DNA of 18,550 nt from UHGV virus genome UHGV-1832352; one strand, written 5' to 3'. Both the position numbers and the translations under genes were made by a program. Shown here in pieces: positions 15,724 through 18,550 of the stretch; the stretch's first letter is position 1; each line of letters starts with the position of its first letter. The notes under the pieces are model-generated. The model was not told the DNA's origin. It saw nothing but the letters and a program-made list of their open reading frames with translations, and made no database searches. This stretch comes from a virus.

Positions 15724-15725
15724 AG

Positions 15726-15752
15726 AAAAAACCCGCCTAAAGGCGGGTTTTC
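15726..15752. terminator. Bidirectional intrinsic terminator
   Basis: A-run, CCCGCC-taaa-GGCGGG, then TTTT; lies between the convergent plus-strand operon end (15723) and the minus-strand ORF end (15771). Confidence 0.8.
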
Positions 15753-15770
15753 AAAAAGCACCAGCTATGA

Positions 15771-15944
15771 TCATGCTGCTTTGCGACGACGAAGCTTACC
15801 CTGCTGCTCTTTACCAGAGACAGTAGCGTGAGTGAACGCATTAGGAGCAGCCTTCATCAGAACTTCAACAGCAGCACCCATACCTGCGAATGCTTTCATT
15901 GTGTCGAACTTAACCTGTGGCTTGGTTGCTTTTTGATCTTCCAT
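15771..15944 (-). CDS. Hypothetical small protein (57 aa, MEDQKATKPQVKFDTMKAFAGMGAAVEVLMKAAPNAFTHATVSGKEQQGKLRRRKAA)
   Basis: Not in the ORF track (below cutoff). ATG at 15944 with GGAG SD and 6-nt spacer; stop at 15771-15773 immediately before the terminator. Confidence 0.4.
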   Translation of the reverse strand: MEDQKATKPQVKFDTMKAFAGMGAAVEVLMKAAPNAFTHATVSGKEQQGKLRRRKAA

Positions 15945-15983
15945 AGAAAACTCCAGAAGCTATACCGAAACAATTCCTGTTGT

Positions 15984-16403
15984 TTACTCATCATCAATAG
16001 ATGATACGCAATATTTATTTTTAAATTTAAGGTTCTTTGGCGTAACTTCATCAGATATATCAAAACCGTCCAGAATTCTATTGAATGTAGCTTCTGGCAT
16101 ATCATCATGAACGGAAATCTCACCCGATCGCTGCTTTCTAACCATGTTATCCACTCGCCAAATTATAGCTTCAGCGTAAACAACATAACTTGGATGCTTG
16201 ATAAAGCGATGATCACCAGAATTCAAGACGCAAGACGGATCGTGGGGGACACCATCCTTGATACTAGAAATATTAACAACTAAAACACAATAACAATCGT
16301 TAACGGGGTAATAAACAGGATCATTACAAATCACATGAAGATGATTGCATGGCCCAGTTGGGGCAAGCACAGTTCCTTTCCTGTATGGCTGATAATCCGT
16401 CAT
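15984..16403 (-). CDS. Hypothetical protein (139 aa), candidate toxin/effector partner of the Panacea-domain protein
   Basis: ATGA overlap with the upstream gene at 16400-16403 (translational coupling); AT-rich; Cys/His-rich N-terminal half; no family recognised. Confidence 0.65.
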   Translation of the reverse strand: MTDYQPYRKGTVLAPTGPCNHLHVICNDPVYYPVNDCYCVLVVNISSIKDGVPHDPSCVLNSGDHRFIKHPSYVVYAEAIIWRVDNMVRKQRSGEISVHDDMPEATFNRILDGFDISDEVTPKNLKFKNKYCVSSIDDE

Positions 16404-16972
16404 GATAATTGCAAAGAAAATTCCTTAAGTTTCTGAGATTCTTCCATTTTGCCAATTATACGATTAGCCTCATCCTCGCTTTTACCCTCACTGATCAGCA
16501 TTTCTTTCAGGTCTATAGGCTTACGAGAATTGCCAGGATTGTGCCACTCTGGACAAACGCTTTCTAAATGCGTCATGTTTGCGAGATCAAATCGGTTCAT
16601 ATGCCCATACAGAGAATAGATTTCATCTAAAATCCGGATATCTGCACGGCTCAACTCATCAAAGACCTCGTCTGCATCCATTTCCCTCGGATCTGAACGC
16701 AACAACACATCATGCCCGTTCGTCTCTATCAGGTTGTACCAGTAGTCACCAATACCTTCAGCCTTACCACGAATCAAGTTCAGCGTATTCGACATGACTG
16801 GACCAAATTTCATAGAGTAAAGGCTATCTTCGCCGATCATCCTGCCATGCTTCAAAATCGACTTGCGGTTAGACAGATAGAGCAGCTTCATCAATTTCAG
16901 ATATGCCATGCGCCCACCTCGCTTAAGAAGTAGGTATGCAGCCATTTGAGCTACTTTTTCTTCGCAAAACAT
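16400..16972 (-). CDS. Panacea/DUF4065-domain protein (SocA/PanA-like antitoxin-type, 190 aa)
   Basis: N-terminus ...VAQMAAYLLLKRGGRMAYLKLMKLLYLSNR...FGPV... follows the DUF4065 pattern (hydrophobic helix, KLxKLLY, GPV) as I recall it; AT-rich. Confidence 0.7.
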   Translation of the reverse strand: MFCEEKVAQMAAYLLLKRGGRMAYLKLMKLLYLSNRKSILKHGRMIGEDSLYSMKFGPVMSNTLNLIRGKAEGIGDYWYNLIETNGHDVLLRSDPREMDADEVFDELSRADIRILDEIYSLYGHMNRFDLANMTHLESVCPEWHNPGNSRKPIDLKEMLISEGKSEDEANRIIGKMEESQKLKEFSLQLS

Positions 16973-17622
16973 ATAAGAAACCTCAAAGATAGTGAACTTT
17001 GTAATTATTCTCGATACTTCATGGGTTGCTTCATCACCAACATGAGCTTCTTATGGTGTGCCCACTTAGGCCTAAGCAACTAGTTACCTTGTTTGTCAAG
17101 TTTATAGCTGGCTTTAATCATGGTCAATTGAAGTGATGAGCAAATGATGCTTTCTAAGAATAACAGGTTCCCAATAGGCTCCCACAAAGTGTATAACTAG
17201 TTGTTTTTCAAAAACGGTACATCCTATCGAGCATTGGTGCAACGCTAAACCGACCACTCCAGTGAACGTCAGTTTTTTCAGGCATTGCGCTGGTTTGGTT
17301 GATTTTTTGCATTTCAGAATTACCGTGCATTTTCAAATGTAGAGATTATTTTATCGATATATCATGGGGTTATGTTATTCAGCATCACTGTTCAGGAGGC
17401 TCAATAACGGGGTACTATACCATAACAACAGGAAGCGCCTGTCTCATTGCAAAAGAAAATTGAGATCCTCTCAAGGCATGAAGCTCTCACGAAGTGATGG
17501 AAATAATCTTATTAGCCGTTAGCTTTGTTAAGGCCAATGATAAACAATCCAGGTTCGACGATAAATAAAAATCACACATTAAACTCCGGTGATATCTCTC
17601 CCTGCTAATAGCACTGATAGAG

Positions 17623-17656
17623 AAAAAAAGAACCCAATAAGCATTGGGTTCTTTTA
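17623..17656. terminator. Bidirectional intrinsic terminator downstream of the 248-aa minus-strand gene
   Basis: A7, GAACCCAAT-aagc-ATTGGGTTC, then TTTT; 37 nt past the stop at 17693. Confidence 0.65.
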
Positions 17657-17692
17657 TGTAATGCCTTCCATACCATCGAAGAACTTCACATA

Positions 17693-18439
17693 TTATTTCT
17701 CCGATTTAACCCCGAATAAATCATAAATTAATTTAGAAGTGTCTGTATATATTTTAATCTTTTCCTTTGAGTTTGGGTCAAACGACTTAGCAAAGTCAAT
17801 TAATTTCGGTGCAGCATCTCGCATTTTGCTTAAAATATCAGGGGCGAGCTTTCCTTCATTCACCAGATGTGACATCTTATCCAGATAGCCATCAAAATTC
17901 ATTTCTCCCCCATCTGCCAGACGCTTCATCTCTCCCAGGTACTTCTTCATATCACGTTGAGATAACTCTTCAAACTGAGCTGTCAGATAGTTCTCATTAT
18001 CATCATTAATATTCACTTTTTCTGCTCCTGCTAAATCTGTGTAGGCACTAGAGTATGAAAGTGAAATCAACAGCGAAGCGAATAATTTTAAGCTGTTGTC
18101 ATCATATTCCTGACATGCATTAACAAACGTTAAAAAACCAGAACCTATTGCTTGCAAATGTATATTCGCTAAAGGTTCATTATCCTTAGATTCCTCATAA
18201 AATAGCTGAACCGTGGAGGGAAGGTCATTCTTAGTTTCTACATCAAAAGTATATCGTTCTATGGGCGTTGCATCTTTATTATCCTCAGGATTACATATAC
18301 TATTAATCGCAAAATGAAAAATAGCCCGATCAACAACTGATGCAATAAATTCACGATCGTTTAATTCCTCATCAGTGCAATCTCCAATATACTTATTAAC
18401 CCACTCTTTGAGATTAGTTATTTGCTCAATTAAAAACAC
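17693..18439 (-). CDS. Hypothetical protein (248 aa), orphan AT-rich gene
   Basis: Long uninterrupted ORF in very AT-rich DNA, where chance ORFs of this length are unlikely; apparent GTG start at 18439 with an A-rich leader and no clear SD; own terminator. Confidence 0.65.
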
Positions 18440-18550
18440 ATTTTTTTACGTGCATGCCATAAATTATGAGTGATTCTTTGAATAAACAAATCTATTTTTG
18501 CAATAATTATATCCCGATGACGCAGCGCTGAATAATCAATAGACTTACCA

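Follow-up and report, generated by a model that had tools for sequence, protein, structure and literature searches.

The terminal part of UHGV-1832352, an 18,550-nt stretch of viral DNA (hereafter the window; interval of interest 15,724-18,550), very probably represents the int-distal junction of an mEp460-like lambdoid prophage of E. coli, integrated in the 5′ end of dusA and carrying a predicted panAT toxin-antitoxin (TA) cargo. The boundary lies between positions 17,226 and 17,227, approximately 1.5 kb past the terminator that follows the excisionase gene (xis); positions 15,724-17,226 are phage DNA and 17,227-18,550 are core E. coli chromosome. The initial annotation had proposed a prophage edge at about 15.74 kb, followed by adjacent island DNA, or else a cargo region within the prophage arm. 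An edge does fall inside the region, and 15,724-17,226 does comprise cargo together with an arm of the phage attachment site (attP), but the edge is at 17,226/17,227 and not at 15.74 kb. Nor is the neighbouring DNA an island: the dusA 5′ remnant, yjbM and yjbL that make up 17,227-18,550 occur in K-12 and in approximately 4,380 of 5,426 complete E. coli genomes.

The features that define the phage side and the junction are as follows.

15,442-15,723, plus strand: PrtN-family excisionase (recombination directionality factor), last gene of the early-left operon (Pfam PF11112, E 4e-23; phrog_1300 'excisionase', E 8e-40; RefSeq annotation at homologous loci)
15,727-15,752, no strand assigned: bidirectional intrinsic terminator between the convergent xis and cargo operons (perfect inverted repeat; 11-bp stem, 6 G-C pairs)
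17,163-17,226, no strand assigned: P arm of attP with two direct GGYTCCCA repeats (17,166-17,173 and 17,177-17,184), conserved with the mEp460 attP despite different cargo
17,227-17,234, no strand assigned: att core TCGAGCAT, 8 bp, the crossover region, with phage to the left and chromosome to the right (four-way alignment, K-12 BLAST, genome census)
17,208-17,330, minus strand: orphaned dusA 5′ end, a 40-aa open reading frame (ORF) of approximately 35 K-12 codons (104 nt), five phage-derived codons and a stop (K-12 comparison; partial tRNA-dihydrouridine synthase pseudogene in RefSeq genomes)

The boundary is placed at 17,226/17,227 because three comparisons break there. In a BLAST search of the whole window against the K-12 region, the empty-site comparison suggested at the outset, only 17,227-18,550 aligns (94.4% identity), stopping 104 nt into dusA. 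Window positions 17,227-17,330 correspond to K-12 dusA nt 1-104 and the homology ends at the att core. The second comparison sets the window junction beside K-12 attB, the attP of the free phages (mEp460, Lys8385Vzw) and the AR_0085 junction on the int side; in this four-way alignment the exact common core is TCGAGCAT, with host dusA beginning rightward. The third is a census of the 5,426 complete genomes using a 181-nt probe across the junction: 663 carry the occupied junction, and the others that match (approximately 3,700) do so solely from 17,227, inside an intact dusA. On the phage side, xis, the cargo and the DNA up to the attP core are collinear with free phage genomes. A repeat search of 15.7-17.7 kb found no att partner, which is expected to lie outside the window. 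Since that search could not reach the partner, the core was defined by comparison with K-12, the free phages and AR_0085. Two places had been suggested for an att site; the core lies in one (17.0-17.7 kb), and the other (15.73-15.77 kb) is not borne out.

The P arm has some internal structure. In mEp460 all four copies of GGYTCCCA within 9 kb fall in the 340-bp attP region, a number that none of 200 shuffles reaches, and the repeats are candidate arm-type integrase sites. A palindrome, AACTAGTT, present at 17,078 and 17,196 as an inverted repeat, was considered as an operator and dropped, the second copy not being conserved in mEp460. We note that in Lys8385Vzw (MT225100; positions approximately 5,900-5,920) the att core TCGAGCAT is tandemly duplicated at attP, giving an extra 8 bp unlike mEp460; this may be an artefact of building a circular genome from prophage ends.

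No integrase or tRNA gene had been seen near the supposed boundary, and this is upheld: none of the window ORFs encodes an integrase and ARAGORN finds no tRNA or tmRNA in the window. The integrase is missing because attP separates xis from int, and integration sends int approximately 43 kb away; a tRNA is missing because the target is a protein gene. Strain AR_0085 matches 15,724-17,226 of the window at 100% identity. Its prophage, approximately 43 kb long, takes in, from the dusA remnant onwards, early, lysis, head and tail genes, then dinI and, last, a tyrosine integrase gene. A full-length dusA follows at a distance of 88 bp; its first 100 nt or so, up to the core, are a diverged phage version. 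In the free phages mEp460 and Lys8385Vzw, xis reads towards the terminator, a 57-aa gene and the cargo read towards it from the other side, and attP follows, then int, reading towards dinI. Their attP contains a diverged mimic of the dusA 5′ end, in keeping with an element that supplies a replacement 5′ end and is flanked by imperfect att repeats. Recombination at attP places xis and the cargo at the end seen here and int at the other, beside a dusA with a phage-rebuilt 5′ end. A dusA-associated tyrosine integrase, bound to the GGYTCCCA arm sites, would catalyse integration, and the PrtN-family protein would serve as excisionase.

Integrases specific for the dusA 5′ end, carried by elements that replace that end, have been described and the mEp460 integrase is listed among the homologues (Farrugia 2015, NAR 43:4547, PMC4482086). 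The element studied here resembles these in its insertion into 5′ dusA, in the orphaned fragment at one end with a rebuilt dusA 5′ end and tyrosine integrase at the other, and in the imperfect flanking att repeats. Nothing essential is different, with the qualification that the window displays the int-distal junction only; the E. coli core is an 8-bp exact match inside a longer, semi-conserved stretch. Phage lambda shares site-specific integration by a tyrosine integrase, a small directionality factor and the position of xis as last gene of the early-left operon. In lambda, however, int and xis are neighbours and lie to the same side of attP, whereas in the present group (mEp460, Lys8385Vzw) attP and a cargo slot lie between them and the two genes finish at opposite ends of the prophage. 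The target differs also, being a protein-coding gene whose 5′ end is replaced by the phage.

Between the terminator and the P arm are three genes on the minus strand.

15,771-15,944, minus strand: conserved 57-aa phage gene, phrog_2741 (E 8e-36), part of the phage backbone and outside the swappable module
15,984-16,403, minus strand: panT, predicted toxin of 139 aa, MazF/Kid fold, cluster T6; the start ATG overlaps the panA stop (ATGA)
16,400-16,972, minus strand: panA, antitoxin of 190 aa with a Panacea/DUF4065 (SocA-like) domain (Pfam PF13274, E 1.8e-18, residues 27-137; RefSeq 'Panacea domain-containing protein')

The cargo, approximately 15,958-17,160, is predicted from its sequence to be a translationally coupled type II TA module of the PanA-PanT (T6) kind. 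The Panacea match of PanA scores 67.9 bits against a cut-off of 25.7. The 139-aa protein has the SH3-like barrel of the MazF/Kid/CcdB fold and matches phrog_19071. Since it has no Pfam match it is not a member of the PemK/MazF sequence family, and it is MazF-like by fold. Its homologues form 62 clusters in a single-sequence search and 196 in a profile search, and are found in Enterobacterales, Vibrio, Shewanella and others. A Panacea gene lies directly upstream of the toxin homologue; the two overlap by 4 nt in Shewanella and Proteus, as they do in the window, and are 1 nt apart in Vibrio, and the pairing is retained in different prophages and islands. Among Proteus/Providencia prophages, the Proteus panAT follows tail-fibre genes and sits beside Abi_2, or beside peptidase_S8 with ABC/AAA-ATPase genes, surroundings that look like a defence-gene cluster at a prophage end.

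The assignment to T6 is made through a listed member, WP_025672779.1 (Dataset S1), a profile match with 49% identity to the protein of the window (E 8e-42), and not through the tested PanT of Pseudomonas moraviensis. In the P. moraviensis T6 pair, the toxin has been shown to inhibit translation and to associate in a complex with PanA (Kurata 2022, PNAS 119:e2102212119, PMC8832971). The two pairs share a standalone Panacea antitoxin upstream, the toxin downstream, a 4-nt overlap and a MazF/PemK-like fold. They differ in that toxicity and neutralisation are established for the P. moraviensis pair only, the window pair being known from sequence, and in that the family described here has an invariant cluster of His and Cys residues (invariant H21, H23, C26, D55, C58, G63 and H65, with H70 nearly so). 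The His/Cys cluster could be a metal site. By analogy, translation is the probable target of the toxin, which likely acts as an RNase and which PanA would neutralise by direct binding; in the lysogen the likely role of panAT would be abortive-infection defence or prophage stabilisation.

The start of panT merits comment. RefSeq/PGAP uses a 128-aa form from an internal GTG. The 139-aa form from the ATG is favoured because its N-terminus is conserved, the first 11 residues being shared across 33 family members, and because the ATG overlaps the panA stop.

Two regions bear on how the cargo might be expressed.

16,973-17,162, minus strand: panAT upstream region with a promoter-like TTGACC-17-TAAACT at 17,127-17,099 (promoter scan; consensus match only, not above chance)
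17,331-17,692, minus strand: native yjbM-dusA intergenic region, collinear with K-12, with the yjbM terminator at 17,626-17,655 and a promoter-like TTAACA-17-GATTAT at 17,531-17,503

The promoter-like site at 17,127-17,099 may serve the cargo. Read along the minus strand, the yjbM-dusA intergenic region faces the 40-codon dusA′ ORF (stop at 17,208), then the P arm and then panA. The dusA promoter presumably lies in 17,331-17,692 and now points into the prophage. A terminator scan detects no intrinsic terminator on the minus strand between 17,330 and 16,972; host read-through into the cargo is possible because nothing of the kind separates the orphaned dusA promoter from panA, and such read-through may add to cargo expression in lysogens. 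A bolder proposal is that the xis-attP slot is a dedicated TA/defence hotspot with expression wired to integration, such that a dusA-type promoter always drives the cargo independently of the phage repressor. In the lysogen this would be the host dusA promoter, acting through the dusA′ ORF and the P arm; in the free phage it would be the phage's own dusA-mimic promoter. We regard this as rather doubtful.

Some points weigh against the account given so far. The other prophage end lies outside the window, and intactness and the partner att copy are known from related genomes only. The 139-aa protein gives no match in Pfam (E ≤ 0.1, a spurious ICMT match aside), NCBIfam or PADLOC; indeed PADLOC matches none of the cargo proteins, nor yjbM, and NCBIfam returns nothing meaningful. 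RNase activity would be ascribed to it by analogy, and anti-phage activity of panAT would likewise follow by analogy. Read-through transcription is suggested by the arrangement of the DNA. Promoter-like matches in the region are at chance level (eight found against 9.0 expected), and because the scan does not rise above chance the promoter assignments are tentative.

Is the 139-aa protein an RNase toxin at all? It might instead poison gyrase as CcdB does, bind metal through the His/Cys cluster or be a partner without toxicity, in which case PanA would act chiefly as the sensor of a defence system. We consider this alternative improbable.

If the cargo is a PanA-PanT module, how did it reach its position? 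The 57-aa segment (15,724-15,957) and the P arm are common to many dusA prophages, that of O157:H7 included, and the DNA between them varies. The module has a left edge at approximately 15,958 and a right edge at approximately 17,120-17,165, depending on the phage compared (breakpoints 17,122, 17,164 and 17,166). About five cargo types were sampled in the slot. Apart from panAT, mEp460 and O157:H7 have a 177-aa phrog_4350 protein, PhiR40_1, in which the 57-aa gene is missing, has a toxin of the YafO family (Pfam, 1.9e-21) and a 179-aa partner, 1720a-02 has a 182-aa protein with sub-threshold Pfam matches only, and PSJ-23 has decayed SocA fragments. The slot is a moron site, and the varied cargo is most simply explained by related phages exchanging cassettes through recombination. 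That panAT is instead an autonomous small mobile insertion would fit its sharp edges and the occurrence of the same pair in unrelated Vibrio, Shewanella and Proteus elements. No transposase gene, however, lies around the module, and a repeat search of 15.7-17.7 kb turned up neither direct repeats at its flanks nor inverted repeats at its ends. Other cargos, moreover, are found between these conserved phage sequences, which is what exchange of cassettes among phages by homologous recombination predicts; we judge the mobile insertion to be distinctly improbable.

Rousset et al. reportedly described, in 2022, moron or defence hotspots at the ends of P2 and P4 prophages. The xis-attP slot resembles hotspots of that type in its fixed position between conserved phage genes, its alternative accessory genes with their own upstream region and terminator, and its enrichment in TA or defence-like functions. 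It differs in being located between xis and attP of dusA-integrating lambdoid phages and in that its defence role is putative, the comparison covering the roughly five cargo types sampled.

Composition had drawn attention to this region in the first place. The break after the xis-like gene is genuine: the G+C (GC) content of 15,724-18,550 is 39.1%, compared with 47.5% for the preceding plus-strand operon (10,001-15,723) and 46.4% for the whole window, and past 15,724 there are minus-strand ORFs only. No 2.8-kb stretch of the window has a lower GC content, and just 0.25% of sliding windows are equally low. It is nevertheless not AT-rich throughout as first described. The phage part (15,724-17,226) has 41.5% GC and the chromosomal part (17,227-18,550) 36.4%, and the 57-aa gene segment, at 46.8%, is not AT-rich. 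The low-GC interval is therefore two unrelated AT-rich pieces, phage then chromosome, with the deepest AT-richness in chromosomal yjbM/yjbL and not in phage DNA. The sliding-window calculation that had been recommended confirms a drop and a composition that is not uniform, but the strongest local step, at approximately 15.88 kb (delta GC 0.079), is not at the junction. It ranks fourth in a mosaic window, behind larger steps at 1.5, 9.6 and 7.1 kb; for this reason composition alone is not diagnostic of a boundary, and the GC change-point was dropped as a boundary locator.

The description of the region as loosely spaced, with long non-coding gaps, applies to one gap only, of 720 nt (16,973-17,692). 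The three phage genes are tight and panA and panT overlap by 4 nt. Identification of the preceding gene as PrtN/excisionase-like stands on the Pfam and PHROG matches listed above; its longest ORF begins at GTG 15,415 and the RefSeq homologues begin at ATG 15,442. The terminator at about 15.74 kb, reported as strong, is a real hairpin whose strength depends on the strand. The scan scores the minus strand only (UUUUUUCUUU tail, U6CU3), and the plus-strand tail, read from the sequence, is UUUU. With a long U tail on one strand (minus) and four U on the other, it is a bidirectional terminator of two convergent units, the cargo operon being terminated more strongly than xis.

Could the prophage end at this terminator, with island or flanking DNA beyond? 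The strand switch, the terminator and the GC drop do coincide there. Yet in the free phages mEp460, Lys8385Vzw and SKA5 the 57-aa gene and the cargo adjoin xis at one end and attP/int at the other, and empty-site K-12 has none of 15,724-17,226, so that K-12, the free phages and the census together refute such an ending, to which we attach hardly any probability.

On the other side of the junction, the chromosomal flank continues beyond the dusA remnant and the intergenic region into two genes.

17,693-18,439, minus strand: chromosomal yjbM (DUF2713), 35.5% GC (Pfam PF10897, E 6e-145; K-12 b4048; 94.4% identity to K-12)
18,430-18,550, minus strand: 3′ part of yjbL, cut by the window end (annotation at the homologous locus and K-12)

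The gene order in prophage-free K-12 is yjbL-yjbM-dusA-pspG. Megablast of 15,400-18,550 against complete E. coli genomes returned loci annotated as PrtN, two hypothetical proteins, Panacea, partial tRNA-dihydrouridine synthase, DUF2713, yjbL and zur. That the whole interval, yjbM included, might be a prophage cargo arm with its boundary past 18,550 has in its favour the AT-richness of yjbM and its match to phrog_29005, but is refuted by the K-12 comparison and the census and is scarcely credible given that yjbL, yjbM and dusA are contiguous in prophage-free K-12, that this DNA is so widespread in E. coli, that the K-12 homology breaks exactly at the att core and that over-extended prophage predictions best explain the PHROG match.

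The phrog_29005 match of chromosomal yjbM is strong (E 4e-149) although the gene is present in K-12, and phrog_29005 probably derives from prophage predictions overrunning the dusA junction. The yjbL-yjbM DNA (approximately 36% GC) is unusually polymorphic for DNA described as core: K-12 is 94% identical, and the identity of most genomes falls in bands of 90-99%; approximately 1,040 of the 5,426 genomes have no match to the 15,400-18,550 query, which contains yjbL-yjbM. The locus may be an old acquisition.

All the components are of described kinds, and hundreds of genomes, as well as deposited phage records, already contain annotated sequences that are nearly identical. Current understanding is unchanged and the use of the analysis is mainly in annotation. 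The prophage limit is settled and the absence of a nearby integrase or tRNA explained, in a case where composition alone would misplace the boundary by 1.5 kb. The limits of dusA prophages and the toxin start codon can be annotated to match, and phrog_29005 treated as probably contaminated with yjbM. The PanA-PanT pair, present in approximately 205 complete genomes, is a candidate abortive-infection or addiction module of E. coli prophages, and the xis-attP slot of this phage group exchanges accessory genes.

Elsewhere in the window, Rfam at the gathering threshold gives nothing, and permissive E-values over 15.7-17.7 kb give only terminator-like sub-threshold matches. At 10,250-10,472 on the plus strand there is a sub-threshold, full-length match (1-206 of 206) to the Rfam small RNA STnc100, with 41.2 bits compared with a gathering threshold of 47 (E 3.3e-7). 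It coincides with a local GC spike (approximately 54%) just upstream of a yfdP-like coding sequence; the long ORFs at this place look spurious.

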